In this document: piece by piece, positions 345 to 46,143 of the stretch | How positions within the stretch are numbered: the first letter of the stretch is position 1 | Layout of the letters: the number at the start of each line of letters is the position of its first letter | NCBI RefSeq assembly: GCF_037042905.1 | Contig: NC_087250.1 | Coordinates: forward strand, 4,776,001 to 4,840,000 | Length of the DNA: 64,000 nt | Reading direction: 5' to 3' | DNA from: Lytechinus pictus | Lineage: Eukaryota | The notes under the pieces: generated by a model | Databases searched by the model: none | What the model was told of the DNA's origin: nothing | The model's input: only the letters and a program-made list of their open reading frames with translations | Program-made: the position numbers and the translations under genes

Positions 345-657
345 ATTTAAGCACTATCTAAAGCACTGTGTAGGGAAATTGTGAAGTGTATGTGGAGAAA
401 ACTTAATAAATGATGCAAGTGCGAAGCGCGAGCTGATATTATTATTATTATTTTGACCTAGGATCTGGACATTCTAGGCCTAAGGACATTTTGTCATCAT
501 ATGAAAATGATGACTCTGTTCCTATTCCTCTTCCTAGGCGCGAAATGAAACTTGTCGATATTCCTCTCTGAAAAAGGGACAATTTAGTTATTAGAAATTC
601 ATGAACATTTTATTAATATTTATTAATGTAATAAGCCTAATGAGTGGGTGAAATTTG
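345..657 (+). mobile_element. Left part of an interspersed GCGAGCGCGAAGCGCGAGC-motif repeat (host of the giant element)
   Basis: Aligns by eye to ~32950-33265 (e.g. AAGGACATTTTGTCATCA, TTCCTATTCCTCTTCCTA, CTGAAAAAGGGAC, TAATAAGCCTAATGAG). Confidence 0.85.
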
Positions 658-658
658 A

Positions 659-1207
659 GGGTAAGCCCGCCAGTCATAAGGACCATAAGTCATAATACTA
701 ACTGGTCATAAGGACCGTTAGTCATAACGTGTACAATCCTATACCCAAATGTTCGCTAGTCATAATAGGGACAAAGGGTCACTAGTCATAAGGTCATAAG
801 GACCATGAGTCATAAGGTCCGATTTTCATAATGCAAGGTAAGGGTCGCTATTCATAATGCACGATAAGGGTAAATGATCATAAGGAACGCTAGTCATAAT
901 CAACAATGAGGGTCGGTATTCATAATAATAGATGAGGGTCGCTAGTCATAAAAAGAAAGAGGCTACATTAATCATGAGGGTCGCCAGTCATAATAGGGGA
1001 AGAGGTTCACTAGTCATAATAGTAGATGAGGTTCGCCAGTCATAATAGTAGAAGAGGGTCGCTATTCATGACTGGCCAGTCATAATAGAATAAGGGGTTC
1101 GCCAGTCATAATAGTAGATGAGGGTCGCTAGTCATAATAGTAGAAAGCATTGGCGTACCTAGGATTTTTCACAGGGGGGGCAAAACCGTCCACCAAAAAA
1201 TTTGACA

Positions 1208-1250
<43 letters not shown>

Positions 1251-4200
1251 TCTTCAAGCTCGTCAGGGGGGCATTGAAGGTCTTCAAGCTCGTCAGGGGG
1301 GGCAAAAAAGGTTTTTCAAGCCCGTCAGGGGGGGGCAAAGATACGTTTTTGCATGGGTTGTGACTCGTCAGGGGGGGCAGAGTGCCCCCCCTGCCCCCCC
1401 GTAGGTACGCTAGTGGTAGAAAGGGTTCGCCAGTTATAATAGTAGATGAGGGTCGCTAGTCATAATAGTAGAAAGGGTTCGCCAGTCGTAATAGTAGAAG
1501 GGGTTCGCCAGTCATAATAGTAGAAGGGATTCGCCAGTCATAGTAGAAGGGGTTCGCCAGTCATAATGGTAGATGAGGGTCGCTAGTCATAATAGTAGAG
1601 GGGTTCACCAGTAATAATAGTTGATGAGGGTCGCCAGCCATAATAGTAGAAGGGGTTCGCCAGTTATGATAGTAGAAGGAGTTCGCCAGTCATAATGGTA
1701 GAAGGGGTTCGCTAGTCATAATGGTAGAATGGGTTCGCTATTCATAATAGTAGAAGGGGTTCGCCAGTCATAATAACATATGGGGCTCGCCAGTCATAAT
1801 AATACATGACGGTCGCCAGTCATAATAGAAGAAGGGGTTCGCCAGTCATAATAGTAGATGAGGGTCGCTAGTCATAATAGTAGAAAGGGTTCGCCAGTCA
1901 TAATAGTAGAGGGGGTTCGCCAGTCATAATAGTAGAAGGGGTTCGCCAGTCATAATAACAGATGTGGTTCGCCAGTCATAATAGAAGAAGGGGTTCGCCA
2001 GTCATAATAGTAGATGAGGGTCGCTAGTCATAATAGTAGAAAGGGTTCGCCAGTTATAATAGTAGATGAGGGTCGCTAGTCATAATAGTAGAAAGGGTTC
2101 GCCAGTCATAATAGTAAAAGGGGTTCGCCAGTCATAATAGTAGAAGGGATTCGCCAGTCATAGTAGAAGGGGTTCGCAAGTCATAATGGTAGATGAGGGT
2201 CGCTAGTCATAATAGTAGAGGGGTTCACCAGTAATAATAGTGGATGAGGGTCGCCAGTCATAATAGTAGAAGGGGTTCGCCAGTTATAATAGTAAAAGGA
2301 GTTTGCCAGTCATAATAATACATTTGGGTCGCCAGTCATAATAGTAGAAGGGGTTGGCCTGTCATAATAGAAGATGAGGGTCGCTAGTCATAATAGTAGA
2401 AGGGCTTCGCCAGTCATAATAGTAGGAGGGGTTCACCAGTAATAATAGTGGATGAGGGTCGCCAGTCATAATAGTAGAAGGGGTTCGCCAGTTATAATAG
2501 TAAAAGGAGTTTGCCAGTCATAATGGTAGAAGGGGTTCGTTAGTTATAATGGTAGAAGGGGTTCGCTAGTCATAATAGTAGAAGAGGTTCGCCAGTCATA
2601 ATAACAAATGGGGTTCGCCATTCATAATAATACATGACGGTCGCAAGTCATAATAGAAGAAGGGGTTCGCCAGTCATAATAGTAGATGAGGGTCGCTAGT
2701 CATAATAGTAGAAATAGTTCGCTAGTCATAATAGTAGATGAGGGTCGCTAGTCATAATCGTAGAAAGGGTTCGCCTGTCAAAATAGTAGAAGGGGTTCGC
2801 CAGTCATAATGGTAGAAGGGGTTCGCCAGTCATAATTACAGATTTGGTTCGCCAGTCATAATAGAAGAAGGGGTTCGCAAGTCATTATAGTAGATGAGGG
2901 TCGTTAGTCATAATAGTACAAAGGGTTCGCCAGTTATAATAGTAGATGAGGGTCGCTTGTCATAATAGTGGAAAGGATTCGCCAGTCATAATAGTAGAAG
3001 GGGTTCGCCAGTCAAAATAAAAGAAGGGGTTCGCAAGTTATAATAGTAGATGAGGGTCACTAGTCATAATAGTAGAAATGGTTCGCCAGTTATAATAGTG
3101 GATGAGGGTCGCCAGTCATAATAGTAGAAGGGGTTCGCAAGTCATAATGGTAAAAGGGGCTCGCCAGTCATAATAACAGATGGGGTTTGCCAGTCATAAT
3201 AATACATAACGGTCGCCAGTCATAATAGAAGAAGGGGTTCGCCAGTCATAATAGTAAAAGGGATTCGCCAGTCATAGTAGAAGGGGTTCGCCAGTCATAA
3301 TGGTAGATGAGGGTCGCTATTCATAATAGTAAAGGGGTTCACAAGTGATAATAGTGGATGAGGGTCGCCAGTTATAATAGTAGAAAGGGTTCGCCAGTTA
3401 TAGTAAAAGGAGTTCGCCAGTCATAATGGTAGAAGGGGTTCGTTAGTCATAATGGTAGAAGGGGTTCGCTAGTCATAATAGTAGAAGAGGTTCGCCAGTC
3501 ATAATAACAAATGGGGTTGGTCAGTCAAAATAATACATGAGGGTCGCCAGTCATAATAGTAGAAGGGGTTGGCCTGTCATAATAGAAGATGAGGGTCGCT
3601 AGTCATAATAGTAGAAAGGGTTCGCCAGTCATAATAGTAAAAGGGGTTCGCCAGTCATAATAGTAGAAGGGATTCGCCAGTCATAGTAGAAGGGGTTCGC
3701 AAGTCATAATGGTAGATGAGGGTCGCTAGTCATAATAGTAGAGGGGTTCACCAGTAATAATAGTGGATGAGGGTCGCCAGTCATAATAGTAGAAGGGGTT
3801 CGCCAGTTATAATAGTAAAAGGAGTTTGCCAGTCATAATGGTAGAAGGGGTTCGTTAGTTATAATGGTAGAAGGGGTTCGCTAGTCATAATAGTAGAAGA
3901 GGTTCGCCAGTCATAATAACAAATGGGGTTCGCCAGTCATAATAATACATTTGGGTCGCCAGTCATAATAGTAGAAGGGGTTGGCCTGTCATAATAGAAG
4001 ATGAGGGTCGCTAGTCATAATAGTAGAAGGGGTTCGCCAGTCATAATAGTAGGAGGGGTTCACCAGTAATAATAGTGGATGAGGGTCGCCAGTCATAATA
4101 GTAGAAGGGGTTCGCCAGTCATAATAGTAAAAGGAGTTTGCCAGTCATAATGGTAGAAGGGGTTCGTTAGTTATAATGGTAGAAGGGGTTCGCTAGTCAT

Positions 4201-7200
4201 AATAGTAGAAGAGGTTCGCCAGTCATAATAACAAATGGGGTTCGCCATTCATAATAATACATGACGGTCGCAAGTCATAATAGAAGAAGGGGTTCGCCAG
4301 TCATAATAGTAGATGAGGGTCGCTAGTCATAATAGTAGAAATAGTTCGCTAGTCATAATAGTAGATGAGGGTCGCTAGTCATAATCGTAGAAAGGGTTCG
4401 CCTGTCATAATAGTAGAAGGGGTTCGCCAGTCATAATGGTAGAAGGGGTTCGCCAGTCATAATTACAGATTTGGTTCGCCAGTCATAATAGAAGAAGGGG
4501 TTCGCAAGTCATTATAGTAGATGAGGGTCGTTAGTCATAATAGTAGAAAGGGTTCGCCAGTTATAATAGTAGATGAGGGTCGCTTGTCATAATAGTGGAA
4601 AGGATTCGCCAGTCATAATAGTAGAAGGGGTTCGCCATTCAAAATAAAAGAAGGGGTTCGCAAGTTATAATAGTAGATGAGGGTCACTAGTCATAATAGT
4701 AGAAATGGTTCGCCAGTTATAATAGTGGATGAGGGTCGCCAGTCATAATAGTAGAAGGGGTTCGCAAGTCATAATGGTAAAAGGGACTCGCCAGTCATAA
4801 TAACAGATGGGGTTTGCCAGTCATAATAATACATAACGGTCGCCAGTCATAATAGAAGAAGGGGTTCGCCAGTCATAATAGTAAAAGGGATTCGCCAGTC
4901 ATAGTAGAAGGGGTTCGCCAGTCATAATGGTAGATGAGGGTCGCTAGTCATAATAGTAAAGGGGTTCACAAGTGATAATAGTGGATGAGGGTCGCCAGTT
5001 ATAATAGTAGAAAGGGTTCGCCAGTTATAGTAAAAGGAGTTCGCCAGTCATAATGGTAGAAGGGGTTCGTTAGTCATAATGGTAGAAGGGGTTCGCTAGT
5101 CATAATAGTAGAAGAGGTTCGCCAGTCATAATAACAAATGGGGTTGGTCAGTCAAAATAATACATGAGGGTCGCCAGTCATAATAGTAGAAGGGGTTGGC
5201 CTGTCATAATAGAAGATGAGGGTCGCTAGTCATAATAGTAGAAAGGGTTCGCCAGTCATAATAGTAAAAGGGGTTCGCCAGTCATAATAGTAGAAGGGAT
5301 TCGCCAGTCATAGTAGAAGGGGTTCGCAAGTCATAATGGTAGATGAGGGTCGCTAGTCATAATAGTAGAGGGGTTCACCAGTAATAATAGTGGATGAGGG
5401 TCGCCAGTCATAATAGTAGAAGGGGTTCGCCAGTTATAATAGTAAAAGGAGTTTGCCAGTCATAATGGTAGAAGGGGTTCGTTAGTTATAATGGTAGAAG
5501 GGGTTCGCTAGTCATAATAGTAGAAGAGGTTCGCCAGTCATAATAACAAATGGGGTTCGCCAGTCATAATAATACATTTGGGTCGCCAGTCATAATAGTA
5601 GAAGGGGTTGGCCTGTCATAATAGAAGATGAGGGTCGCTAGTCATAATAGTAGAAGGGGTTCGCCAGTCATAATAGTAGGAGGGGTTCACCAGTAATAAT
5701 AGTGGATGAGGGTCGCCAGTCATAATAGTAGAAGGGGTTCGCCAGTCATAATAGTAAAAGGAGTTTGCCAGTCATAATGGTAGAAGGGGTTCGTTAGTTA
5801 TAATGGTAGAAGGGGTTCGCTAGTCATAATAGTAGAAGAGGTTCGCCAGTCATAATAACAAATGGGGTTCGCCATTCATAATAATACATGACGGTCGCAA
5901 GTCATAATAGAAGAAGGGGTTCGCCAGTCATAATAGTAGATGAGGGTCGCTAGTCATAATAGTAGAAATAGTTCGCTAGTCATAATAGTAGATGAGGGTC
6001 GCTAGTCATAATCGTAGAAAGGGTTCGCCTGTCATAATAGTAGAAGGGGTTCGCCAGTCATAATGGTAGAAGGGGTTCGCCAGTCATAATTACAGATTTG
6101 GTTCGCCAGTCATAATAGAAGAAGGGGTTCGCAAGTCATTATAGTAGATGAGGGTCGTTAGTCATAATAGTAGAAAGGGTTCGCCAGTTATAATAGTAGA
6201 TGAGGGTCGCTTGTCATAATAGTGGAAAGGATTCGCCAGTCATAATAGTAGAAGGGGTTCGCCATTCAAAATAAAAGAAGGGGTTCGCAAGTTATAATAG
6301 TAGATGAGGGTCACTAGTCATAATAGTAGAAATGGTTCGCCATTTATAATAGTGGATGAGGGTCGCCAGTCATAATAGTAGAAGTGGTTCGCAAGTCATA
6401 ATGGTAAAAGGGACTCGCCAGTCATAATAACAGATGGGGTTTGCCAGTCATAATAATACATAACGGTCGCCAGTCATAATAGAAGAAGGGGTTCGCCAGT
6501 CATAATAGTAAAAGGGATTCGCCAGTCATAGTAGAAGGGGTTCGCCAGTCATAATGGTAGATGAGGGTCGCTAGTCATAATAGTAAAGGGGTTCACAAGT
6601 GATAATAGTGGATGAGGGTCGCCAGTTATAATAGTAGAAAGGGTTCGCCAGTTATAGTAAAAGGAGTTCGCCAGTCATAATGGTAGAAGGGGTTCGTTAG
6701 TCATAATGGTAGAAGGGGTTCGCTAGTCATAATAGTAGAAGAGGTTCGCCAGTCATAATAACAAATGGGGTTGGTCAGTCAAAATAATACATGAGGGTCG
6801 CCAGTCATAATAGCAGAAGGGGTTGGCCTGTCATAATAGAAGATGAGGGTCGCTAGTCATAATAGTAGAAGGGGTTCGCCAGTCATAATAGTAGATGACG
6901 GTCGCTAGTCATAACAGTAGAAGGGATTCGCCAGTCATAATTGTAGAAGGGGGTTCGCCAGTCATAATAGTAGAAGGGGTTCGCCAGTCATAATAGCATA
7001 TGGGGTTCGCCATTCATAATAATACATGACGGTCGCCAATCATAATAGAAGAAGGGGTTCGCCAGTCATAATAGTAGATGAGGGTCGCTAGTCATAATAG
7101 TAGAAAGAGTTCGCCAGTCATTATAGTAGATGAGGGTCGCTAGTCATAATAGTAAAAAGGGTTCGCCAGTCATAATAGTAGAAGGGGTTTGCCAGTCATA

Positions 7201-10200
7201 ATGGTAGAAGGGGTTCGCCAGTCATAATAACAGATGTGGTTCTCCAGTCATAATAGAAGAAGGGGTTCCCCAGTCATTATAGTAGATGAGGGTCGTTAGT
7301 CATAATAGTAGAAAGGGTTCGCCAGTTATAATAGTAGATGAGGGTCGCTTTTCATAATAGTAGAAAGGATTCACCAGTCATAATAGTAGAAGGGGTTCGC
7401 CAGTCAAAATAGAAGAAGGGGTTCGCAAGTTATAATAGTAGATGAGGGTCGCTATTCATAATAGTATAAATGGTTCGCCAGTTATAATAGTGGATGAGGG
7501 TCGCCAGTCATAATAGTAGAAGGGATTCGCAAGTCATAATGGTAAAAGGGGCTCGCCAGTCATAATAACAAATGGGGTTTGCCAGTCATAATAATACATA
7601 ACGGTCGCCAGTCAGAATAGAAGAAGGGGTTCGCCAGTCATAATAGTAGATGAGGGTCGCTAGTCATAATAGTAGAAAGGGTTCGCGAGTCATAATAACA
7701 AATGGGGATCGCCAGTCATAATAATACATGAGGGTCGCCAGTCATAATAGTAGCAGGGGTTCGCCTGTCATAATAGAAGATGAGGGTCGCTAGTCATAAT
7801 AGTAGAAGGGGTTCGCCAGTCATAATAGTAGATGACGGTCGCTAGTCATAACAGTAGAAGGGGGTCGCCAGTCATAATAGAAGAAGGGGTTCGCCAGTCA
7901 TAATAGTAGATGAGGGTGGCTAGTCATAATAGTAGAAAGAGTTCGCCAGTCATAATAGTAGATGAGGGTCGCTAGTCATAATAGTAGAAATTGTTCGCCA
8001 GTCATAATAGTAGAAGGGGTTCGCCAGTCATAATGGTGAAAGGGGTTCGTCAGTCATAATAACATATGTGGTTCGCCAGTCATAATAGAAGAAGGGGTTC
8101 GCCAGTTATAATAGTAGATGAGGGTCGCTAGTCATAAGAGTAGATGAGGGTCGCTAGTCATAATAGTTGATGAGGGTCGCCAGCCATAATAGTAGAAGGG
8201 GTTCGCCAGTTATGATAGTAGAAGGAGTTCGCCAGTCATAATGGTAGAAGTTGTTCGCTAGTCATAATGGTAGAAGGGGTTCGCTATTCATAATAGTAGA
8301 AGGGGTTCGCCAGTCATAATAACATATGGGGCTCGCCAGTCATAATAATACATGACGGTCGCCAGTCATAATAGAAGAAGGGGTTCGCCAGTCATGATAG
8401 TAGATAAGGGTCGCTAGTCATAATAGTAGAAAGGGCTCGCCAGTCATAATAGTAGAGGGGGTTCGCCAGTCATAATGGTAGAAGGGGTTCGCCAGTCATA
8501 ATAACAGATGTGGTTCGCCAGTCATAATAGAAGAAGGGGTTCGCCAGTCATAATAGTAGATGAGGGTCGCTAGTCATAATAGTAGAAAGGGTTCGCCAGT
8601 TATAATAGTAGATGAGGGTCGCTAGTCATAATAGTAGAAAGGGTTCGCCAGTCATAATAGTAAAAGGGGTTCGCCAGTCATAATAGTAGAAGGGATTCGC
8701 CAGTCATAGTAGAAGGGGTTCGCAAGTCATAATGGTAGATGAGGGTCTCTAGTCATAATAGTAGAGGGGTTCAACAGTAATAATAGTGGATGAGGGTCGC
8801 CAGTCATAATAGTAGAAGGGGTTCGCCAGTTATAATAGTAAAAGGAGTTTGCCAGTCATAATGGTAGAAGGGGTTCGTTAGTTATAATGGTAGAAGGGGT
8901 TCGCTAGTCATAATAGTAGAAGAGGTTCGCCAGTCATAATAACAAATGGGGTTCGCCAGTCATAATAATACATTTGGGTCGCCAGTCATAATAGTAGAAG
9001 GGGTTGGCCTGTCATAATAGAAGATGAGGGTCGCTAGTCATAATAGTAGAAGGGGTTCGCCAGTCATAATAGTAGAAGGGGTTCGCCAGTCATAATAACA
9101 TATGGGGTTCGCCATTCATAATAATACATGACGGTCGCAAGTCATAATAGAAGAAGGGGTTCGCCAGTCATAATAGTAGATGAGGGTCGCTAGTCATAAT
9201 AGTAGAAAGAGTTCGCTAGTCATAATAGTAGATGAGGGTCGCTAGTCATAATAGTAGAAAGGGTTCGCCTGTCATAATAGTAGAAGGGGTTCGCCAGTCA
9301 TAATAGTAAAAGGAGTTTGCCAGTCATAATGGTAGAAGGGGTTCGTTAGTTATAATGGTAGAAGGGGTTCGCTAGTCATAATAGTAGAAGAGGTTCGCCA
9401 GTCATAATAACAAATGGGGTTCGCCATTCATAATAATACATGACGGTCGCAAGTCATAATAGAAGAAGGGGTTCGCCAGTCATAATAGTAGATGAGGGTC
9501 GCTAGTCATAATAGTAGAAATAGTTCGCTAGTCATAATAGTAGATGAGGGTCGCTAGTCATAATCGTAGAAAGGGTTCGCCTGTCATAATAGTAGAAGGG
9601 GTTCGCCAGTCATAATGGTAGAAGGGGTTCGCCAGTCATAATTACAGATTTGGTTCGCCAGTCATAATAGAAGAAGGGGTTCGCAAGTCATTATAGTAGA
9701 TGAGGGTCGTTAGTCATAATAGTAGAAAGGGTTCGCCAGTTATAATAGTAGATGAGGGTCGCTTGTCATAATAGTGGAAAGGATTCGCCAGTCATAATAG
9801 TAGAAGGGGTTCGCCATTCAAAATAAAAGAAGGGGTTCGCAAGTTATAATAGTAGATGAGGGTCACTAGTCATAATAGTAGAAATGGTTCGCCAGTTATA
9901 ATAGTGGATGAGGGTCGCCAGTCATAATAGTAGAAGGGGTTCGCAAGTCATAATGGTAAAAGGGACTCGCCAGTCATAATAACAGATGGGGTTTGCCAGT
10001 CATAATAATACATAACGGTCGCCAGTCATAATAGAAGAAGGGGTTCGCCAGTCATAATAGTAAAAGGGATTCGCCAGTCATAGTAGAAGGGGTTCGCCAG
10101 TCATAATGGTAGATGAGGGTCGCTAGTCATAATAGTAAAGGGGTTCACAAGTGATAATAGTGGATGAGGGTCGCCAGTTATAATAGTAGAAAGGGTTCGC

Positions 10201-13200
10201 CAGTTATATTAAAAGGAGTTCGCCAGTCATAATGGTAGAAGGGGTTCGTTAGTCATAATGGTAGAAGGGGTTCGCTAGTCATAATAGTAGAAGAGGTTCG
10301 CCAGTCATAATAACAAATGGGGTTGGTCAGTCAAAATAATACATGAGGGTCGCCAGTCATAATAGTAGAAGGGGTTGGCCTGTCATAATAGAAGATGAGG
10401 GTCGCTAGTCATAATAGTAGAAGGGGTTCGCCAGTCATAATAGTAGATGACGGTCGCTAGTCATAACAGTAGAAGGGATTCGCCAGTCATAATTGTAGAA
10501 GGGGGTTCGCCAGTCATAATAGTAGAAGGGGTTCGCCAGTCATAATAGCATATGGGGTTCGCCATTCATAATAATACATGACGGTCGCCAATCATAATAG
10601 AAGAAGGGGTTCGCCAGTCATAATAGTAGATGAGGGTCGCTAGTCATAATAGTAGAAAGAGTTCGCCAGTCATTATAGTAGATGAGGGTCGCTAGTCATA
10701 ATAGTAAAAAGGGTTCGCCAGTCATAATAGTAGAAGGGGTTTGCCAGTCATAATGGTAGAAGGGGTTCGCCAGTCATAATAACAGATGTGGTTCTCCAGT
10801 CATAATAGAAGAAGGGGTTCCCCAGTCATTATAGTAGATGAGGGTCGTTAGTCATAATAGTAGAAAGGGTTCGCCAGTTATAATAGTAGATGAGGGTCGC
10901 TTTCCATAATAGTAGAAAGGATTCACCAGTCATAATAGTAGAAGGGGTTCGCCAGTCAAAATAGAAGAAGGGGTTCGCAAGTTATAATAGTAGATGAGGG
11001 TCGCTATTCATAATAGTATAAATGGTTCGCCAGTTATAATAGTGGATGAGGGTCGCCAGTCATAATAGTAGAAGGGATTCGCAAGTCATAATGGTAAAAG
11101 GGGCTCGCCAGTCATAATAACAAATGGGGTTTGCCAGTCATAATAATACATAACGGTCGCCAGTCAGAATAGAAGAAGGGGTTCGCCAGTCATAATAGTA
11201 GATGAGGGTCGCTAGTCATAATAGTAGAAAGGGTTCGCCAGTCATAATAACAAATGGGGATCGCCAGTCATAATAATACATGAGGGTCGCCAGTCATAAT
11301 AGTAGCAGGGGTTCGCCTGTCATAATAGAAGATGAGGGTCGCTAGTCATAATAGTAGAAGGGGTTCGCCAGTCATAATAGTAGATGACGGTCGCTAGTCA
11401 TAACAGTAGAAGGGGGTCGCCAGTCATAATAGAAGAAGGGGTTCGCCAGTCATAATAGTAGATGAGGGTGGCTAGTCATAATAGTAGAAAGAGTTCGCCA
11501 GTCATAATAGTAGATGAGGGTCGCTAGTCATAATAGTAGAAATTGTTCGCCAGTCATAATAGTAGAAGGGGTTCGCCAGTCATAATGGTGAAAGGGGTTC
11601 GTCAGTCATAATAACATATGTGGTTCGCCAGTCATAATAGAAGAAGGGGTTCGCCAGTTATAATAGTAGATGAGGGTCGCTAGTCATAAGAGTAGATGAG
11701 GGTCGCTAGTCATAATAGTTTATGAGGGTCGCCAGCCATAATAGTAGAAGGGGTTCGCCAGTTATGATAGTAGAAGGAGTTCGCCAGTCATAATGGTAGA
11801 AGTTGTTCGCTAGTCATAATGGTAGAAGGGGTTCGCTATTCATAATAGTAGAAGGGGTTCGCCAGTCATAATAACATATGGGGCTCGCCAGTCATAATAA
11901 TACATGACGGTCGCCAGTCATAATAGAAGAAGGGGTTCGCCAGTCATGATAGTAGATAAGGGTCGCTAGTCATAATAGTAGAAAGGGCTCGCCAGTCATA
12001 ATAGTAGAGGGGGTTCGCCAGTCATAATGGTAGAAGGGGTTCGCCAGTCATAATAACAGATGTGGTTCGCCAGTCATAATAGAAGAAGGGGTTCGCCAGT
12101 CATAATAGTAGATGAGGGTCGCTAGTCATAATAGTAGAAAGGGTTCGCCAGTTATAATAGTAGATGAGGGTCGCTAGTCATAATAGTAGAAAGGGTTCGC
12201 CAGTCATAATAGTAAAAGGGGTTCGCCAGTCATAATAGTAGAAGGGATTCGCCAGTCATAGTAGAAGGGGTTCGCAAGTCATAATGGTAGATGAGGGTCT
12301 CTAGTCATAATAGTAGAGGGGTTCAACAGTAATAATAGTGGATGAGGGTCGCCAGTCATAATAGTAGAAGGGGTTCGCCAGTTATAATAGTAAAAGGAGT
12401 TTGCCAGTCATAATGGTAGAAGGGGTTCGTTAGTTATAATGGTAGAAGGGGTTCGCTAGTCATAATAGTAGAAGAGGTTCGCCAGTCATAATAACAAATG
12501 GGGTTCGCCAGTCATAATAATACATTTGGGTCGCCAGTCATAATAGTAGAAGGGGTTGGCCTGTCATAATAGAAGATGAGGGTCGCTAGTCATAATAGTA
12601 GAAGGGGTTCGCCAGTCATAATAGTAGAAGGGGTTCGCCAGTCATAATAACATATGGGGTTCGCCATTCATAATAATACATGACGGTCGCAAGTCATAAT
12701 AGAAGAAGGGGTTCGCCAGTCATAATAGTAGATGAGGGTCGCTAGTCATAATAGTAGAAAGAGTTCGCTAGTCATAATAGTAGATGAGGGTCGCTAGTCA
12801 TAATAGTAGAAAGGGTTCGCCTGTCATAATAGTAGAAGGGGTTCGCCAGTCATAATAGTAAAAGGAGTTTGCCAGTCATAATGGTAGAAGGGGTTCGTTA
12901 GTTATAATGGTAGAAGGGGTTCGCTAGTCATAATAGTAGAAGAGGTTCGCCAGTCATAATAACAAATGGGGTTCGCCATTCATAATAATACATGACGGTC
13001 GCAAGTCATAATAGAAGAAGGGGTTCGCCAGTCATAATAGTAGATGAGGGTCGCTAGTCATAATAGTAGAAATAGTTCGCTAGTCATAATAGTAGATGAG
13101 GGTCGCTAGTCATAATCGTAGAAAGGGTTCGCCTGTCATAATAGTAGAAGGGGTTCGCCAGTCATAATGGTAGAAGGGGTTCGCCAGTCATAATTACAGA

Positions 13201-24460: not shown

Positions 24461-24815
24461 GTAAAAATGGCAGAGGTAAAAATGGCAGAGGTAAAATTGG
24501 CAGAGGTAATAATGGCAGAGGTAAAAATGGCAGAGGTAATAATGGCAGAGGTAAAAATGGCAGAGGTAAAAATGGCAGATGTTAAAAGGGCAGAGGTAAT
24601 AATGGCAGGGGTAAAATGGCAGGGGTAATAATGGCAGAGGTAAAATGACAGAGGTAAATATGGCAGAGGTAAAAATGGCAGAGGTAAAAATGGCAGAGGT
24701 AAAAATGGCAGAGGTAAAAATGGCAGAGGTAATAATGGCAGAGGTAATATTGGCGGAGGTAAAATGGCAGGGGTTATAATGGGAGAGGTAAAAATGACAG
24801 CTCTAGGTAAAATAT
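24461..24815 (+). repeat. 15-bp tandem array AAAATGGCAGAGGTA
   Basis: About 23 copies following CGGCTCGGTGT. A shorter copy lies at 28688-28793. Confidence 0.95.
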
Positions 24816-25886
24816 GGCCAGTCTTAAACCCCCATGCAATGAATTGTCAAAAAGCCCCCCCATGTACATACATTAAATAAGAAGTGCATGTCACGGTTAG
24901 GCATTTCATCATCATTATGTCTTCATCGGCCTAAACAATGCTATTTACGAATTCGTTGGAGGTGTACCGTGAACACTTTTTAAAAAGAAATCAGACAACA
25001 TATATTTTTTCATTCAATTTATCAGGAGCAAAATGAAACTGCACTATTCTCATTCATCATTTTATAACATTCCTTTTTTTCTGGCTGGATTTTTTATATC
25101 TAAAGTTTTGCCAGGTTTACCGATGCTAAAATGAGGAAGGGTAGACATAAGAGAGGTGGAGAGACAGAGAGGGTTAGGGGCGGGGAAAACATAGAGAACA
25201 TAGCGGGGAAAGATTAGATGTTGAAATTATCATGAATGATTGTGGTTAAATATTATTTCCTTATTTGTAATGTCGTCTGTACTATTCTTTTTGAATAATT
25301 GAATTACAATAAACATGCGTTCCCAGGCTTGGCACTGAATATGTAACTGATTATGAAAATCAATAATAATCTTGTTTTGACTGGTAAACCAATTTGGGGT
25401 CGATCGAGGGAGACCGTCTGGTTCAGATTCTTTGCATAAAAGAAGACCCTGAAACTTTACCACTGCATCCAATATGATATAAACGCCTTGATGGTCATAA
25501 CCCTTGGAAGCGGAAGTACTGTTGGGTATTTTGTACACCATAAGCAGCATCCTCTTGGCAATTAGCTTGGTATGCTAAAATGAAAAAACATTGTTTATTA
25601 TCTAATTGTTATTATTTTGTTGTAATTCTTTTTCTGACCTAAAAGAACTTGATTTAGTTGAAATAATTTGTTGTGTCATTTTCCCCCTTAACCAAATCCC
25701 CTTTCATTTTGGAGTAAAAACTTTTTTTCTTGGCTTTTTAACAAACCAGCACCCCATTTTTCACTAACTTTTCAAAAGTAAGTGGTGCTCACTCAAGCGG
25801 AAATATTTTTTCGACAGTTATATCGTAATTTGCTTAAATGGATCTGTACCAATGTTAAAATGTGGAAAAATATTCAGGATTTTACA

Positions 25887-28180
25887 AGTGGTTCGCAAGT
25901 CATAATGGTAAAAGGGGCTCGCCAGTCATAATAACAGATGGGGTTTGCCAGTCATGATAACACATAACGGTCGCCAGTCATAATAAAAGAAGGGGTTCGC
26001 CAGTCATAATAGTAGAAGGGATTCGCCAGTCATAGTAGAAGGGATTCGCCAGTCATAATGGTAGATGAGGGTCGCTAGTCATAATAGTAGAGGGGTTTAC
26101 CAGTAATAATAGTGGATGAGGGTCGCCAGTCATAATAGTAGAAGGGGTTCGCCAGTTATAGTAAAAGGAGTTCGCCAGTCATAATGGTAGACGGGGATCG
26201 TTAGTCATAATGGTAGAAGGGGTTCGCTAGTCATAATAGTAGAAGAGGTTCGCCAGTCATAATAACAAATGGGGTTCGTCAGTCATAATACAGTAATACA
26301 TGAGGGTCGCCAGTCATAATAGTAGAAGGGGTTGGCCTGACATAATAGAAGATGAGGGTCGCTAGTCATAATAGTAGAAGGGGTTCGCCAGTCATAATAG
26401 TAGATGACGGTCGCTAGTCATAACAGTAGAAGGGGTTCGCCAGTCATAATTGTAAAAGGGGGTTCGCCAGTCATAATAGTAGAAGGGGTTCGCCAGTCAT
26501 AATAGCATATGGGATTCGCCATTCATAATAATACATGACGGTCGCCAGTCATAATAGAAGAAGGGGTTCGCCAGTCATAATAGTAGATGAGGGGCGCTAG
26601 TCATAATAGTAGAAAGAGTTCGCCAGTAATAATAGTAGATGAGGGTCGCTAGTCATAATAGTAAAAAGGGTTCGCCAGTCATAATAGTAGAAGGGGTTCG
26701 CCAGTCATAATGGTAGAAGGGGTTCGCCAGTTATAATAACAGATGTGGTTCGCCAGTCATTATAGTAGATGAGGGTCGTTAGTCATAATAGTAGAAAGGG
26801 TTCGCCAGTTATAATATTAGATGAGGGTCGCTTGTCATAATAGTAGAAAGGATTCGCCAGTCATAATAGTAGAAGGGGTTCGCGAGTCAAAATAGAAGAA
26901 GGGGTTTGCAAGTCAAAATAGAAGAAGGGGTTTGCAAGTTATAATAGTAGATGAGGGTCGCTAGTCATAATAGTAAAAAGGGTTCGCCAGTTATAATAGT
27001 GGATGAGGGTCGCCAGTCATAATAGTAGAAGGGGTTCGCAAGTCATAATGGTAAAAGGGGCTCGCCAGTCATAATAACAGATGGGGTTTGCCAGTCATAA
27101 TAATACATAACGGTCGCCAGTCATAATAGAAGAAGGGGTTCGCCAGTCATAATAGTAGATGAGGGTTGCTAGTCATAATAGTAGAGGGGTTCGCCAGTAA
27201 TAATAGTGGATGAGGGTCGCCAGTCACAATAGTAGAAGGGGTTCGCCAGTCATAATGGTAAAAGGGGTTCGCCAGTCATAATAACAAACGGGATTCGCCA
27301 GTCATAATAATACATGAGGGTCGCCAGTCATAATAGTAGAAGGGGTTCGCCAGTCATAATGGTAAAAGGGGTTCGCCAGTCATAATAACAAACGGGATTC
27401 GCCAGTCATAATAATACATGAGGGTCGCCAGACATAATATTAGAAGCGGTTGGCCTGTCAAAAACGAAGATGAGGGTCGCTAGTCATAATAGTAGAAGGG
27501 GTTCGCCAGTCATAATAGTAGATGACGGTCGCTAGTCATAACAGTAGAAGGGGTACGCCAGTCATAATGGTTAAGGGGTTCGCCAGTCATAATAACAGAT
27601 GTGGTTCGCCAGTCATAATAAAAGAAGGGGTTCGCCAGTTATAATAGAAGATGAGGGTCGCTAGTAATAATAGTAGAAAGGGTTCACCAGTTATAATAGT
27701 ACATGAGGGTCGCTTGTCATAATAGTATAAGGGGTTCGCCAGTCATAACAGTAGAAGGGTTTCGCCAGTCATAGTAGAAGGGGTTCGCCAGTCATGGTAG
27801 ATGAGGGTCGCTTGTCATAATAGTAGAGGGGTTCGCCAGTAATAATAGTGGATGAGGGTCGCCAGTCATAATAGTAGAAGGGGTTCGCCAGTCATAATGG
27901 TAAAAGGGGTTCGCCAGTCATAATAACAAACGGGATTCGCCAGTCATAATAATACATTAGGGTCGCCAGACATAATAGTAGAAGCGGTTGGCCTGTCAAA
28001 AACGAAGATGAGGGTCGCTAGTCATAATAGTAGAAGGGGTTCGCCAGTCATAATAGTAGATGACGGTCGTTAGTCATAACAGTAGAAGGGGTTCGCCAGT
28101 CATAGTAGTAGAAGGGGTTCGCCAGTCATAATAGTAGAAGAAGGTCGCTAGCCATAATAGTGGAAGGGGTTCGCCAGTCA
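25887..28180 (+). repeat. Second block of the 26-bp satellite
   Basis: Same unit and orientation as the main array. It ends with the same terminal monomers (GAAGCGGTTGG, GAAGAAGGTCGCTAGCC). Confidence 0.97.
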
Positions 28181-28793
28181 GAAGAAGGGAACTTTGCTAC
28201 ATAATAACTGAGGTGGATGCAAAGTGCGAGCACAAAAAAGTGATTTTCAAACGTAATATGTATTATGTTGAAGTTCAAAAAGGGTATTCAATTTCGAAAA
28301 AGAGCACATTCTATTTTGAAAAATTGGTTTGTTTTTTTAAATCATAACCAGCAGGAGCTGTTAATAATGACACCCTCTCCCCTTAAAAAGAAAATTACCT
28401 TGAGGTTATTCACATAACTTTTGTGACCATCCTGAAAATGTTGGACTTCAAAAAGAGTATTTAATTTTGAAAAAGGGCACATTCCATTTTGTAAAAGGCA
28501 TTTCCCTTTTGAAAAAAGGGCATTTTTTTACCTACGGGGATTTTTTTTAACATTACCAGCAGAAGCTGTTATAAATGACAACCTCCCCTAAAAAAAAATC
28601 ACCTTATCTTTAGGTGAAAAGGTGTAGATTGTGCATAATTCCAATATCAAAGAAATCTACTTTGAATTATGCACAATCGGCTCGGTGTAAAAATGGCAGA
28701 GGTAATAATGGCAGAGGTAAAAATGGCAGAGGTAATAATGGCAGGGGTAAAATGGCAGGGGTAATAATGGCAGAGGTAAAATGACAGAGGTAA
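28181..28793 (+). repeat. Unique segment copy 2 plus a short AAAATGGCAGAGGTA array
   Basis: Duplicate of 24161-24460, followed by ~7 copies of the 15-mer. Confidence 0.9.
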
Positions 28794-28859
28794 GATTTTT
28801 TTTTAAGTATTCTTTCAGGACTTACGTATATATTTGGTACGAAGTATGAATTTTGCTTA

Positions 28860-31070
28860 CATTTCTGGAAAATTATCCATCTCACAAAATAATGGCTTGA
28901 TAACATTAATTCATAAAGGTGACAAAGTAAGACATTTCATTAAAAATTGGAGACCAATTTCATTGTTGAATGTTGTCAAGTTGTATTGCTAACAGACTTT
29001 AAAAAAGTATTACCATATGTTATTCATGTTAATCAGGATTCTTGTCTCGACGAATTATTGGTGAAAATTAAATTTGGCAATTCTTTCATGAAATGGATAA
29101 AAATACTACATCAGAATGCATTTTCTAGTGCTATAGTCAATGGGCAAATGAAACTAAGATTTCGTATTGAAAGAGGGTATATAGGCAAGGTGGTCCCCTA
29201 TCGGCATTATCTGTTTTTGTTACGCGCTGAAATTCTTTGGTTGTTAATTCGAAATTCACACTCTGTCCAGGGAAGTGTTTAACACTTCCCTGCTCTGTCA
29301 AAGGAATTTATGTTGGCTTAAAAGAATACAAAATTCTTCAGTATGCGGATGGCACGGTTTTTTTTTCTGGATGGTACAGCTGCCAGTTTATGTAATGTAC
29401 TAAATATTTTGGATTCATTTGCTGAATGTAGTGGGTTGAAGGTCAATATGCAAAAAAAAATAATGCAATTTGGATAGGTGCTTCACAAAGTGAAAAAGAT
29501 ATACAACTAGATGGAAAACAAGTTGATTTTGTGCATAATGGTTTTTCTTTTCGGTACCTTGGTACAGACTTTCATGTTGTTACTGATAAAATACCCGATT
29601 ATAATAACGATAGAGTTTTCGACAAAATAAAACATCAAATGATTTCATGGATTAAACGAAATATCACTGGTAGAATTGCAGTTGTGAAATCATTATTACT
29701 GCCACAATTTAATCATTTGTTTATGTCAATTCTATCTCCTTCTGCTAAGTTAATGAAAGTTATAAAAAGTAAAGTTCTTTAATTTCATATTGAAGAACAG
29801 GCCAAACAAGAATAGTAGAAAACAGGTTGTTGGTGCTTATGAAGAAGGAGGTCTTAAGATGCCAGACATTGATTTTCTTTAATATGTCATTAAAGCTTAC
29901 ATGGATTCGGAGAATGATTTTAGGAAAATGTGATGACGTCTTTCATCTGATGAAATCATTTTTAACTAAGCCATTTGTATTACAATTTGTGGATGAATAT
30001 TTTCTGTCATTATCTCATGAAGTTGGTAATGCATTTTGGAAAAACGTATTTCATGCTATGTTTTTTTGTTAATTCAAGCGGGGAAAAATAATTGGCTTAC
30101 CAATCCTTTGTGGAGAAATAATGCTATTCAAATAGGGGATAAGTCTGTATTCTTCAAATGTGGTATGAAAAGGGATTAGATTTATTAATGACCTGATTGA
30201 TGATAACGGAAATTTACTTACTCATGATGAATGTGAACAAAATTTTGCTTTAAAGTAAATTATTTGTCCTATTTTTCTATAAGACAAACTATAAAGTGTC
30301 GATATCGAGTAAATGTCGAAACTTGTGAAAAAAATATAGAAAATCCTTTGATACCTTCACATGTTAAAATATTAGTACATGACCGAAAAGGATGTCAATA
30401 TGTCTATAAAACTTTGCCTGGAAAAACAAAATGTGTTCCTATAATATGTTCAAAATGGGATCGATATTTAGATGACCCTCTTGATAATATAACAATTGAA
30501 AGAAACCATATTATGATATTTCGTTTTACTTCAGATATTGGTTTAAGATATTTTCAGTATAAGACATTAAATAGAATATTATTTCTGAACAAACAATTAC
30601 ATAAGATAAAGATTTTTTAAAATGAAAAATTTTCATTTTGTAATAGGGAGTTGGAAGATATTCTACACTTTTTTATAAATGTAAATTTAGTAAAGAAATT
30701 AGGAAGAAAACTGAAAATTGGATTCATGAATGTTTTCAGGCACACATTAAGTTTAGTTAGAAAAATGTAATCTTTGGTTTTGATGAGAAAAGAAATGATG
30801 CATTGAATTGTTTGGTATGTATAATAAAAAAACATTTATTTTTTCAAAAGTTAAATAGTAAAAAACCAGTGTTTACATATGCAAAGAAAAAAATGATTCA
30901 ATATTATGCAGATGAGAGATATATTAGTTCTATATCGGGTTTGTTTAACAAATTTAATACTAAATGGATGTCACTTCATTTTTTATTTATTTGAGAGAAA
31001 TGTTTAAGTATTATTATTGTAATAATGTTTGCTCTTGTATATTTTGATATTATGTGAATCAATAAAAGGC
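28860..31070 (+). pseudogene. Decayed, 5'-truncated non-LTR retrotransposon ORF2 (L1/Tx1 clade reverse transcriptase)
   Basis: Motifs in order across frameshifts: KNWRPISLLNV, FMKWIKIL..NGQ, RQGGPLS, QYADGT (from YADD), SGLKVN, FRYLG, GRIAVVKSLLLPQFNHL, EGGLKMPD, FQYKTLNRIL, and a degenerate C-terminal zinc knuckle (FCNRELEDILHFF). AATAAA at 31061. Confidence 0.9.
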
Positions 31071-31199
31071 CTTTGGAGGGCTAAAAAATGGGGAAAATTA
31101 TACCTTCATGGTATCAGCATGAGAGAGTGGACGTGATTGCGGGTGTGGGTGTGTGTGAGGGAGAGAGAAAGAGGTAGGGCCTTATGCGGTGGGTGTGTT

Positions 31200-31887
31200 C
31201 AGGGGTAGATCCAGGGGGCCCAGGAGTCCTTGCCCATTCCTCGATTACAGGAAACTGAAGAAAATCATAAAAAGAACACAAAAAAGGCTAGTGTCGGAAA
31301 AGATAGCAGAAGGTCTCATTTATATGTCTGGTATGAATCGATCGAGCCACTTGGCCAACAATTAAAGGGGATTAGAGAGAGAACATAAAGTATTAAGAAA
31401 AAATTGCTAACAAAACGTGTTTTATGTCGAATATAATTTATCTTAGATATCGGAATCAAATAACACTGTGAAGGTTGGGAAAAATAATGATTACAAATTT
31501 TGGTTTCATTCAAAAAACATGCTAAAAAAAATCAGGCCCTTTCAAAGGCAACTAATTCACTAAAGTAATTAATTTATATAACCCCATTGATATTTTGATA
31601 ACATAAAAGTTAATTTCTTTCTCTTATCCCTTTCCCTTGTTTTCAATCTTCCTCTCATTGCTAATCTACAGGGAGTGCGATCGAGTCAGCAGCGTCGGGA
31701 TAAGGCCGTTGCATGGTTGTTATACATCTTGCCCCAAATTCTTATTTTTCATACTTTTTTGTTTGTTTTTGGTACAAGGGGATAGGCCTATATGCAAGGG
31801 TGTTTCGGCAATGCATTTTTAGCCTTTCATAATTTCAGTTTTCTGCCCCCCCCCCCCCTTCAAAGGACAAACACGGATCTGCACCTT
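31200..31887. mobile_element. Old hAT-like MITE
   Basis: Starts CAGGGGTAGATCCAGGGGG and ends with poly-C...CGGATCTGCACCT (degenerate inverted termini). No TSD recognised. Confidence 0.5.
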
Positions 31888-32078
31888 ATATGGAACCTCA
31901 ACCAATTTAGCATCCTATCAGAGGGACGGGTTGTGACTGCGAACCAGTAAACCTGCACCATAATGAAAACGCCGAAACGGCCAAGGAAAATGCCAACCAA
32001 AGTCATGCCCGGAATAACAACGAGCCTCGGCAGGCGACCCTCCGCCTTCTCTTGTTAGGACTGGTAACCCTGATGTGG

Positions 32079-34183
32079 CAGGGGCGGATCCAGCTTTCGC
32101 CAATAGGGGGGGGGGGGCGGAAAAATTTTGCACCCATGTTTTCTCCGATCGGCCCCTCAAAGTTGATGTTTATTTGAAGGGTTAGTCCTAACAGTCACTT
32201 CTTATAGCTTTATTTTTATGAATTATGAAAATCTCATAAGCCCTATCTAACTTATTTAATAGTGCGAGCGCGAAGCGCAAGCTCAATTTTGTGGAAAATT
32301 TTATGTATTTTGCCTTGAAAAATTCAGTATTCTGGGCCAAGTTTGTGATCATAAAAAAGATGCGTATGTAAATGAATAATCACTGCAAGCGCGCAGCGCG
32401 AGCAAAATTTTCCAATCTACATTCTGGCCTAATCGAAAAGGATCCTGCTAAGCTAGGACTGTATGCAGTAAGCCATGAAGACGATAAACATTTTTAATAA
32501 TGCGACCGTCAATCGCGAGCTGATTGTATTTTTTTCAATCACGACCTAAAAAAATTACATTTGAGTACTTTTTTAAATCATGAACAGGATAGATAGTATA
32601 AAAAAAATGTGAGTGCGATGCGCGAGTGTAAAAAATGAGATTTATAAACTAAGAAAGGGATACTCTATTCATGTTTTGTAAATCATGAAAATGATGGATA
32701 TAATTGGTTATCGTTTTACAACAGTAATGCAGGAGTGAAGCGCGAGCAGAAATTTTTTTATATTCTGATCTGAAATTCGATAATTTACGCACGTTTTGAA
32801 TAAAGAACCAGCTGCATGCGTATCTAAAAAAACATATGCGTGTTCTATATTTAGACCTAGAATATAGGCTTTCTTAAATTCATTCTTTCATCATGAAAAA
32901 CAATAATGCGAGCGCGGGATGAAAATATTTGACATTCCTAACTGAAAAAGGGGCAATTTTGGCACTCCTTCAAGCACCGCGTAGGAAAAGTAATTGTGAA
33001 GTTAATATGGATCGCAGCTAATAAATGAGGCGAGCGCGAAGCACGAGCTGATATAATTTTTTTTTCATCATTTTGACCAAGGACCGGAACAATCTAAGGA
33101 CATTTTGTCATCAAGACTGTCTTCCTATTCCTCTTCCTAAGCGTGATATGAAACTTGTCCATATTCCATTCTGAAAAAGGGACGATTTAATTAGACGGAA
33201 TTCATGAAAAATTCATCTTATCTATTATTCTAATAAGCCTAATGAGATCGAGCGCCAAATTTGTTGATATTGAGGTCAAAAAAATGGAAATTCTAAGAAA
33301 TTTGTAATCGTGAATAGGATGCTTGGGTTCAGTGGTGGCTCAGTGGTAGAGCGTCCGCCTCATGAACGGGAGGTCGTGGGTTCGATCCCCGGCCGAGTCA
33401 TACCAAAGACTTATAAAAATGGGACCTTCTGCCTTCTTGCTTGGCGCTCAGCATTTAGACTGGAGAGGGGTAATGATAACATATTATGTTATGCAGGGCC
33501 CGCTGGAAGAGCAGTTGAAGTGGCTACCCTGGGTAAATAAAACGTTATCATTATTATTATTATATTTCTAATAATGCGAGCGCAAATCGCGAGCAGAATG
33601 TCATGAAAAGGAGATTTTTAGTATAAATCATATAATTAATACAGAGGTATACATATCTCACGAATTGAAACGCGAGCGCGCAGCGCTATAGCTGATATGT
33701 TTTGACAATCAGACCTGAAAATGGAAACGAATTTTGAGAACTTTATGAAATATAGCTACTTTAACCAAATAATACGAGCGCCCAGCGCGAGCTGAAAATG
33801 TTGACACTCAGACTATAACGGGCATTTTACAAAGTAATTTTTAAAATAAATTAATAAATCAAACAAAAAAATGAAATCTCGATATCCGAGCTGAAATATG
33901 TTTTGTACATTCACTGCAAGAAGTAATGAGCTCCATATCAGCCTATTGAGCAACATATGTATCCTCATCACATGCAATGTGAACGCTAAACCGTGCGAGG
34001 AATAATTGTACATATTTTAAAATATTTAATTAATTTTCCAAGGCTTCCCCTTACCTTATTTTATTTACTCGTTTTTCCTCCTCTTTTTCCCCTCTTCCTT
34101 TCTTTCTTCTCTCTTTTCCCTTCTGTTTTTCGTTCTTTTCCCACAATTTTTGTTGCTCCGCGACACCTTGATATCCGCCTATA
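32079..34183 (+). mobile_element. ~2.1 kb non-autonomous hAT-like element with recurrent GCGAGCGCGAAGCGCGAGC motifs
   Basis: Starts CAGGGGCGGATCCAG plus poly-G and ends GATATCCGCCTAT. About a dozen spaced motif copies. Homologous to 345-657 plus 35450-35850. TSD not visible. Confidence 0.7.
33325..33563 (+). mobile_element. tRNA-derived SINE
   Basis: Pol III A box TGGCTCAGTGG, B box GGTTCGATCC, a body and a (TTA)n tail. Absent from the homologous repeat copy near 35500. Confidence 0.88.
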
Positions 34184-34185
34184 AA

Positions 34186-35440
34186 TGGCGACCCTCATCT
34201 ACTATTATAACTAGCGAACCCCTTCTTCTATTATGACTATATAGCAACCCTCATCTACTATAATGACCGGCGAACCCTTTCTACTATTATGATTGGCGAA
34301 CCCCATACTATTATGACTAGCGACGCTCATCAATTATTATGACTGGCGAACCCGATCTGTTATTATGACTGGCGACCCTCATCCACTATCATGACTGGCG
34401 AACCCTTTCTACTATTTGGACCGGCGAACCCCTTCTACTATAATGACTAGCGACACTCATCCACTATTATGTCTGGCGAACCCTTTCTACTATTATGACT
34501 GGTGAACCCCATCTACTACTATGACTAGCGACCCACATCTATTATTATGACTGGCGAACCCCATCTGCTATTATGACTGGCGACCCTCATCCACTATTAT
34601 GACTGGCGAACCCCTTCTACTATTATGACTTGCGACCCTCATCCAATATTATGACTGGCGAACCCTTTCTACTATTATGACTGGCGAACCCTATCTGTTA
34701 TTATGACTAGCGACCCTCATCCACTATTATGACTGGCGAACCCTTTCTACTATTATGACTGGCGAGCCCTATCTACTATTATGACAAGCGACCCTAACTT
34801 ACTATTATGACTGGCGAACCCTTTCTTCTATTATGACTGGCAACCCACATCTACTATTATGACTGGCGAACCCCATATGTTATTATGACTAGCGACCCTT
34901 ATCCACTACTATGACTTGCGAACCCTTTGTACTATTATGACTGGCGGCCAAATCTACTATTATGACAAGCGACCCCCTCTACTATTGTGACTGGCGAACC
35001 CTCATCTACTATTATGACTGGCGAACCTCTGCTACTATTAATACTTGCGACCCTCATCTACTATTATGACTGGCGAACCCCTTCTACTATTAATACTGGC
35101 GACCCTCATCCACTATTATGACTGGCGACCCTCATCTACCATTAAGACTGGCGAACCCCTTCTACTATTATGACTGGCGACCCTCATCCACTATTATGAC
35201 TGGCGACCCTTATGATTAACGAACCCTTTTCCTCCTTATGACTGGCGACCCTCTTCCTTGATTATGACTAGCGACCCTCTTGTTTCATTATGAATGGCGA
35301 CCCCCATCGTTGATTATGACTAGCGACCTCTATGAACAACGCCCCTTATGAATAGCGACCCTTATGACTATTATGACTAGCGGTCCTTATAACTAGCGGG
35401 TATTATGACTTATGGTCCTTCTGACTGGCGGATGGACCCC
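34186..35440 (-). repeat. Inverted copy of the 26-bp satellite (right arm)
   Basis: GGCGAACCCCTTCTACTATTATGACT units, about 48 copies, degenerating toward the terminus as a mirror image of the left arm. Confidence 0.97.
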
Positions 35441-35449
35441 GAAATTTGA

Positions 35450-46108: not shown

Positions 46109-46120
46109 ATCCAGGACAAT

Positions 46121-46143
46121 CTGGGGACAGAAAGGAAATAAGA
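46121..46143 (-). promoter_or_regulatory. Putative splice acceptor 12 nt upstream of the GPCR ATG
   Basis: The minus strand reads TCTTATTTCCTTTCTGTCCCCAG|ATTGTCCTGGATATG. Confidence 0.65.

Follow-up and report, generated by a model that had tools for sequence, protein, structure and literature searches.

What is the long 26-bp satellite that fills much of a 64,000-nucleotide stretch of the Lytechinus pictus genome? The stretch, called the window here (contig C6:4776001-4840000), was compared with itself and with a genome of 812 Mb in 368 contigs. The satellite proves to be an overgrown arm belonging to a single non-coding DNA transposon of the foldback type, a kind already known, and positions 659-35440 very probably represent one insertion of such a non-autonomous, cut-and-paste transposon. 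The comparisons below demonstrate a single element belonging to a family with target-site duplications, transposition of its composite body as a unit, and recent block duplications within its arm. The enzyme that mobilised it can be named with less assurance.

A single element and its insertion site

The interval is bounded by two related ends in inverted orientation. The left terminus, at 659, reads GGGTAAGCCCGCCAGTCATAAGGACC..., and the right terminus, at 35440, reads ...GGATGGACCCC (...GGTCCTTCTGACTGGCGGATGGACCCC in a longer reading). When the outermost 160 nt of the two ends are aligned globally as inverted repeats, identical bases occupy 34 of the first 40 columns and 58 of the first 70. 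The ends have in common an imperfect inverted repeat of about 70 bp and are nonetheless distinguishable: End A begins GGG(A)TAAGCCCG... and End B begins GGGGTCCACCCG....

Inside these ends lie tandem arrays that face each other. Tandem Repeats Finder (TRF) reports three arrays of period 26, at 1416-24160 (878.8 copies), 25886-28180 (88.7 copies) and 34186-35210 (39.4 copies), and the consensus of the last is the reverse complement of the other two. All of the longest inverted-repeat pairs in the window link the long left array to 34302-34975. The 12-mer CGCYAGTCATAA, which begins 10 nt inside End A, is restated by every arm repeat; its 557 occurrences are oriented as the arms are, with 533 forward (668-28120) and 24 reverse (34311-35371), and the window holds none outside 659-35440, the chance expectation for the window being 0.05. 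The arm and terminal motif, whose short form is CGCCAGTCATAA, might provide extra transposase-binding sites along the arms. As a text string, the array motif has no match in the literature searched. The arms are very unequal: the left measures about 23.5 kb, with a second block of 2.3 kb, and the right 1.25 kb. Between them lies a non-array middle segment of about 10 kb (24161-34185) that itself contains the second 26-bp array. The features of the element, from left to right, are the following.

650..658, no strand: target-site duplication, left copy GAAATTTGA; 8 bp, GAAATTTG, if A658 is the mutated terminal base of the element
659..887, plus strand: End A terminal domain, with a terminal inverted repeat and, after it, degenerate array-motif copies (alignment with End B)
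888..1147, plus strand: first stretch of the 26-bp array, ending in GTAGAAAG at 1140-1147 (TRF and sequence reading)
1148..1415, no strand: nested 268-bp insertion resembling a miniature inverted-repeat transposable element (MITE), interrupting the array (read directly)
1416..24160, plus strand: left arm, 26-bp tandem array, 878.8 copies (TRF, motif counts)
2274..6914, plus strand: 1627-bp block, about 2.9 copies, 99.2% identity, inside the left arm (diagonal scan)
5690..16436, plus strand: 3552-bp block, three copies, 99.6% overall identity, inside the left arm (diagonal scan)
24161..25885, plus strand: middle segment, part 1, comprising U1 (24161-24460), a 15-bp array GTAAAAATGGCAGAG (24461-24800) and unique sequence
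25886..28444, plus strand: internal duplication, judged by sequence, comprising the second 26-bp array (88.7 copies) and U1' (28181-28444) (TRF)
28445..34185, plus strand: middle segment, part 2, non-coding (colinear with a sibling copy on C20, 93-96%)
28687-28793, in part 2: short 15-bp array
~28800-31000, in part 2: degenerate retroelement-like stretch
32956-33330, in part 2: paralogue of the target repeat
33334-33394, in part 2: tRNA-like head of a short interspersed nuclear element (SINE) (partial match to Rfam tRNA, 32.8 bits)
34186..35382, minus strand: right arm, 26-bp array inverted, 39.4 + 4.6 copies (TRF)
35383..35440, minus strand: End B terminus, reverse complement GGGGTCCATCCGCCAGTCAGAAGGACC... 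(alignment with End A)
35441..35449, no strand: target-site duplication, right copy GAAATTTGA

The word GAAATTTGA stands directly outside both ends, at 650-658 and 35441-35449. The first-pass annotation, made from the letters of the window, had proposed matching inverted termini at 659 and 35440, 26-bp arrays of opposite orientation inside them and an intact duplication outside, and all three proposals hold. The duplicated word also lies outside the terminal consensus, as other copies of the element have other flanks and the target paralogue described below has a single copy of it.

The insertion very probably took place in one copy of a highly abundant host repeat and duplicated a target of 8 or 9 bp (GAAATTTG(A)). 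Its two flanks, 345-658 and 35441-35831, are the two halves of this dispersed repeat, whose summed word depth reaches 10^4-10^5 in three sequencing runs. By coincidence, the middle of the element carries another copy of the same repeat, which resembles the left flank at 32956-33246 (74% identity) and the right flank at 33763-33919 (76%). When its portion at 33135-33345 is aligned with both junctions, this paralogue runs uninterrupted through the insertion point with one CAAATTTGT. Read contigs from three of four runs (X1, X2 and X7) likewise continue from 654/657 into TTGACATT..., which resembles the right flank; no such continuing paralogue occurs among the rows listed for run X6. These uninterrupted sites are paralogous empty sites and not the empty allele. 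The best sequencing runs contained at most a 0.19 fraction of the sampled words and are uninformative on the presence or absence of the insertion in other individuals. The target repeat is preceded by a 15-bp tandem array, CGGAGCAATTGTCGG, of 21 copies (window 15-338), and additional short copies of its GCGAGCGCGAAGCGCGAGCTGA-type core occur here and there between 32200 and 33800.

The left arm has itself received an insertion. The 268-bp sequence at 1148-1415 has 14-nt inverted ends that match at 12 of 14 positions and is flanked by an 8-bp duplication, GTAGAAAG, at 1140-1147 and 1416-1423. Its sequence includes a poly-A run as well as G-rich repeats of 30 bp (TRF 1243-1339).

A dispersed family and a sibling copy

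The termini recur throughout the genome. A terminal 32-mer, allowing up to 3 mismatches, has 59 genome matches against none for a reversed-pattern control, and a degenerate 18-mer that covers both end types has 83 matches on many contigs against 4 in the control. Family ends fall into two types, End A (GGGATAAGCCCGYCAGTCATAAGGACCATAAG...) and End B (GGGGTCCACCCGCCAGTCATAAGGACCACTGG...). From both lists of terminus matches, 17 candidate end pairs were picked by proximity and facing orientation, and their flanks were read. Direct repeats of 8-10 bp, no two of them alike, flank eleven of the 17, and each of these 11 joins one A end to one B end. Among 272 pairings of non-cognate flanks, the longest matches are 5 bp (once) and 4 bp (twice). 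The duplications of the 11 pairs are listed here by contig.

Window: GAAATTTGA
C4: AGAGTAAAG
C19: (C)GGCCTTCA(G)
C30: GATAACAC
C8: CAATAAACG
C20: GTCACTACG
C8, second pair: (C)GTAAGAAA(G)
C5: TGACAGAAC(G)
C1: GAGTAGCC
C30, second pair: CTTCGTGGG
C15: GTTTCCAAG

The genome-wide search thus bears out the earlier expectation of paired inverted termini with duplications specific to each locus. The same annotation had called the window copy unusually large, a description that does not hold within the family: the 11 duplication-bearing pairs span 6.9, 11, 12, 14, 18, 22, about 25, 26, 34.8, 46 (or 60) and 61 kb, a range in which the window copy counts as large without being exceptional. The family numbers about 40 copies of 1 to 60 kb. 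The copies C3, C4, C15, C19, C8a, C30 and C20 pair forward arrays at one end with reverse arrays at the opposite end; the C2 pair, which has no duplication, carries arrays in one orientation only. Middle segments of the copies examined measure 3.6-15.5 kb and are devoid of transposase open reading frames (ORFs).

Two loci show more complex arrangements. At C5:48192838-48201439, five End B termini lie within 9 kb, and four of them are followed by the same 10-bp word and then by the 26-bp array; here an element seems to have inserted into the arm of another copy, the junction then being amplified with the array. On C8, the same End B with the same flank occurs twice, at 40158682 and 40173255, 14.6 kb apart. 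This repeat is a segmental duplication or an assembly duplicate, and the length of that element is accordingly 46 or 60 kb. In run X7, which is labelled as a second organism, one 368-nt contig covers the End A domain (window 669-900) with 12 differences, and the family may also exist in a related species.

A sibling copy lies on C20. It extends from End B at 5487435 to End A at 5513641 and has its own duplication, GTCACTACG. In flipped orientation, it is colinear with window 24165-34292 at 93-96% identity, and the first part of the middle segment (24161-25885) is 87-94% identical to it. The stretch common to both copies includes the unique part beside the End A arm, the 15-bp array, the retroelement-like stretch, the host-repeat paralogue, the tRNA-like SINE head and the last kilobase before the End B arm. 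The flanks of the C20 copy differ from those of the window copy. The same 10-kb interior, on different contigs and between different duplications, indicates that the composite transposed as one unit.

The non-coding 10-kb middle segment between the arms very probably consists of captured or nested repeats. ARAGORN finds no tRNA genes in the window. A fragment of a long interspersed nuclear element (LINE) reverse transcriptase was considered for 28800-31000 and is weakly backed, with no Pfam matches for four window ORFs; an ORF in the corresponding stretch of the C20 sibling matches RVT_1 at 21.9 bits, below the cut-off of 29.6. The second array and 28181-28444 are, by their sequence, an internal duplication of the inner end of the arm: U1' (28181-28444) is 98.5% identical to 24161-24425, and the array part of the duplication is about 86% identical.

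Comparison with the sibling also places the growth of the left arm in time. In the 3552-bp blocks, sampled 500-bp bins starting from 6416 to 11416 are 100% identical at a shift of 3552, and the diagonal scan finds many further left-arm blocks of 0.5-1.2 kb at 97-99% identity. Block identity (99-100%) is far above the 93-96% between the window copy and the C20 sibling, a divergence of 4-7%. Blocks so much more alike than the siblings indicate that the arm gained at least about 10 kb after insertion, or that part of it is an assembly artefact. In the C20 copy the End B arm measures 7.8 kb and the End A arm 1.0 kb, the reverse of the window (1.25 kb and 23.5 kb), which indicates that arm length is labile. 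The End A arm would have grown in place after insertion, through tandem duplication of 0.5-3.6-kb blocks, into a 23.5-kb satellite, while the End B arm would have remained at 1.25 kb. Unequal exchange or replication slippage might account for this growth.

Superfamily, partner transposase and competing explanations

Drosophila FB and sea urchin TU elements combine long inverted arms of short tandem repeats with 8-9 bp duplications and modular middles drawn from dispersed repeats. They are a few kb long, unlike the duplication-confirmed copies of the 26-bp family (6.9-61 kb). Galileo elements, which carry a THAP-domain P transposase, make 7-bp duplications; in the 26-bp family the duplications are 8-10 bp, and no P-type match is listed in any copy. 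Long tandem-repeat arms are atypical for hAT elements, and hAT and P termini have CA/TA-type ends. The 26-bp family has the features of the foldback class, namely long tandem-repeat inverted arms, locus-specific short duplications and dispersed copies with a non-coding middle. The window element fits the foldback or Rehavkus-like picture in every structural respect tested.

Published foldback systems offer several parallels. Rehavkus elements make 9-bp duplications, encode a PHD-finger transposase, are associated with a minisatellite and are assigned a host range of arthropods and annelids (PMC6446971). They resemble the 26-bp family in having subterminal tandem repeats next to inverted repeats (PMC6446971). 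In Tribolium, Rehavkus-like foldback elements carry satellite DNA in inverted termini of more than 11 kb, and a related array reaches 80.5 kb (bioRxiv 10.1101/2024.12.02.626372). Tetris, a non-autonomous element of Drosophila virilis with 8-10 bp duplications, is assigned to Mutator on duplication length (PMC4079207). In each of its inverted arms, tandem repeats that echo a portion of the terminal domain come after an outer flanking domain; its middle is non-coding and varies, and its arm repeats escape into satellite arrays. All of these features, like the 8-10 bp duplications, are paralleled in the 26-bp family. The Tetris unit is about 220 bp, with arms of up to 1.7 kb, compared with 26 bp and 23.5 kb here, and there is no sequence relationship between the two. 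The Tetris report cites Galileo as an element whose long inverted repeats contain tandem repeats with additional transposase-binding sites (PMC4079207).

The genome contains an apparently intact autonomous element of like architecture. At C18:17456660-17471426 lies a foldback element of 14.8 kb with arms of 48-bp tandem repeats (2.2 + 1.8 kb) and a duplication, GATTTCCA, that has the same 8/9-bp ambiguity. Its intact 838-residue ORF matches the Mutator-like element (MULE) transposase domain at 41.7 bits (cut-off 27.6) and a C-terminal PHD finger at 23.8 bits, slightly short of the cut-off of 24. Of the five genome matches listed to its transposase, no other belongs to a full-length copy. In combining a MULE domain, a PHD finger and this architecture, the C18 element agrees with the description of Rehavkus (PMC6446971). 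Its presence shows that transposons of this sort reside in the genome; it is no evidence that the C18 element mobilises the 26-bp family.

We lean towards a partner enzyme, and family membership, of the Mutator/Rehavkus type, a tentative preference suggested by duplication length, G-rich ends and architecture. Mobilisation would occur in trans, by a DDE transposase with affinity for both the terminal motif and the copies of it reiterated along the arms.

Several observations count against a single mobile element with this affiliation. Six of the 17 candidate pairs lack a duplication, their flanks sharing 0-5 bp. No read contig bridges 658/659, where the contigs are mostly paralogues of the high-copy flank. 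The complete identity of the 3552-bp blocks could be an assembly artefact. When the termini are read uniformly (GGGATAAG..., GGGGTCCA...), the duplication is 8 bp in nine of 11 pairs, a length that also fits hAT, P and Merlin. The C18 element ends in ACTGCTGGCTAGCGACC, which is unrelated to the termini of the 26-bp family; these termini, the family's want of a known transposase and a duplication that may be 8 rather than 9 bp set it apart from Rehavkus. ORF scans, with Pfam searches of selected ORFs, found no transposase ORF in the nine copies read through (window, C2, C3, C4, C15, C19, C8a, C30 and C20); the copies of 11 kb on C1, 22 kb on C30, 46/60 kb on C8 and 61 kb on C15, and the C5 locus, lie outside this set. 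A tblastn search with four transposase-like ORFs gave no match in the window and 40 loci. Comparing coordinates by eye placed none of the domain matches listed (at least 17 MULE, at least 62 hAT, at least 8 P-element and at least 53 IS1595/Merlin-type) inside the 17 candidate intervals; the hAT scan used Dimer_Tnp_hAT and the P scan Tnp_P_element, and these genome match lists are lower bounds. Around MULE-type ORFs at 20 loci, the terminal 16-mers (up to 3 mismatches) are absent, apart from one likely chance match. The proposal that the element is non-autonomous agrees with this outcome, the search for members with a transposase ORF having found none in the copies examined.

Three candidate partners were set aside. 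On C20, a MULE match at a distance of 33 kb from a solo End A is not located in an array and is not accompanied by an End B. A paralogue of 1249 residues on C19 has no arrays within 5 kb. An 845-residue ORF 13 kb from the same C20 solo End A belongs to an unrelated multi-copy family. This last ORF (C20:1948395-1950929, minus strand) has a zinc-finger-like N-terminus, no Pfam match and at least 54 genome matches, many with intact frames of about 840-860 residues; it is probably the transposase of another, unclassified mobile element.

Duplication length, which is 9-11 bp in Mutator elements, bears on the choice of superfamily and depends on where the element is taken to end. Under uniform termini, the two pairs that depart from 8 bp have 9 bp (C4) and 7-8 bp (C30b). 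When the terminal G's are assigned case by case, 9 bp fits nine of the 11 pairs, and the best-fitting lengths are 8 bp in two pairs, 9 bp in six and 10 bp in three. A G precedes GGATAAG in 13 of 15 A ends and precedes GGGTCC in most B ends. Since these G's recur at family ends, they are probably part of the element, and A658 may be a mutated terminal base. The window has A658 where the family has G, and host-repeat paralogues carry T at the position of A35449; a 9-bp duplication would account for both bases by one event. The window duplication may be either 8 or 9 bp long.

A single foldback element of another superfamily, whether hAT, P (Galileo-like), Merlin or an undescribed one, with its shape arrived at by independent elongation of inverted repeats, is a possible but less probable reading. 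The 8-bp length under uniform termini is typical of hAT and P, transposase matches of hAT, P and IS1595 type are present in the genome, and none of the MULE matches listed is connected with the family. The Tetris report remarks that separate lineages may arrive at the foldback structure independently (PMC4079207). Against this, the C4 pair is unambiguously 9 bp and three pairs allow 10 bp, the only autonomous tandem-armed foldback element found in the genome is of MULE and PHD type with the same 8(9)-bp ambiguity, and no listed hAT, P or Merlin match lies inside family intervals. The family termini begin GGG, not with the CA/TA-type ends of hAT and P. A Mutator/Rehavkus-type partner is still the placement that we favour.

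It is improbable that the tens-of-kb copies were mobilised by a transposase which, in this assembly, cannot be recognised as MULE, hAT, P or Merlin. Movement at large size is suggested by the duplication-confirmed pairs of 46 and 61 kb and by the middle of at least 10 kb that the window and C20 copies shared when they moved. Were such an enzyme involved, the 26-bp satellite of this genome would stem mainly from a very large non-autonomous cut-and-paste element whose partner is unidentified or of a new type.

The element could also be real and its 34.8-kb length partly an artefact, with identical 3552-bp blocks over-replicated in assembly and a true left arm several kb shorter; this is rather unlikely. 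It draws on the perfect identity of the sampled bins from 6416 to 11416, on the three block copies over 5690-16436 and on the lack of read evidence spanning the arm. On the other side, further copies have long unequal arms (7.8 kb on C20 and more than 9 kb on C30), the 1627-bp blocks differ slightly (99.2%), as true duplicates would, and the graded identities of 97-99% among further blocks resemble ongoing amplification. That the interval is not one element, but two independent insertions or solo ends, or a local satellite inversion, facing each other by chance, is scarcely credible: extreme arm inequality speaks for it, as does a middle in which a second array occurs together with repeats of host type, one of them a paralogue of the flanking repeat, but an identical 9-mer stands exactly at both outer boundaries while non-cognate ends share at most 5 bp, the whole middle up to both arms recurs in a C20 copy with a duplication of its own, the target paralogue crosses the site without a break, and all 11 duplication-bearing pairs consist of an A end and a B end.

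Satellite origin and the neighbouring sequence

As one insertion of a foldback-type transposon, the window offers an internally controlled case of a satellite array growing from a transposon arm. Arm blocks stand 0-1% apart, compared with the 4-7% sibling divergence that dates the insertion, which places most arm growth after insertion unless part of the arm is over-assembled. The mechanism is not new, as a link between foldback or Rehavkus-type elements and satellite DNA is already described for Tribolium (bioRxiv 10.1101/2024.12.02.626372) and Drosophila virilis (PMC4079207). The locus also carries a warning for annotation: about 35 kb that resembles a satellite and assorted repeats is one mobile element, and standard repeat annotation is likely to fragment the family.

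Immediately to the right of the element, at 35852-38083, lies a 2.2-kb array of a 9-bp unit, ATCATCACC, in 248.7 copies, in which long, artefactual open frames rich in His, Asp and Met occur. About 9-16 kb to the right of the element are a single-exon ORF for a rhodopsin-family G-protein-coupled receptor (44798-46177, minus strand; 7tm_1, E 4.2e-40) and a retroelement integrase fragment (50647-52065, minus strand; rve, E 9.1e-12).

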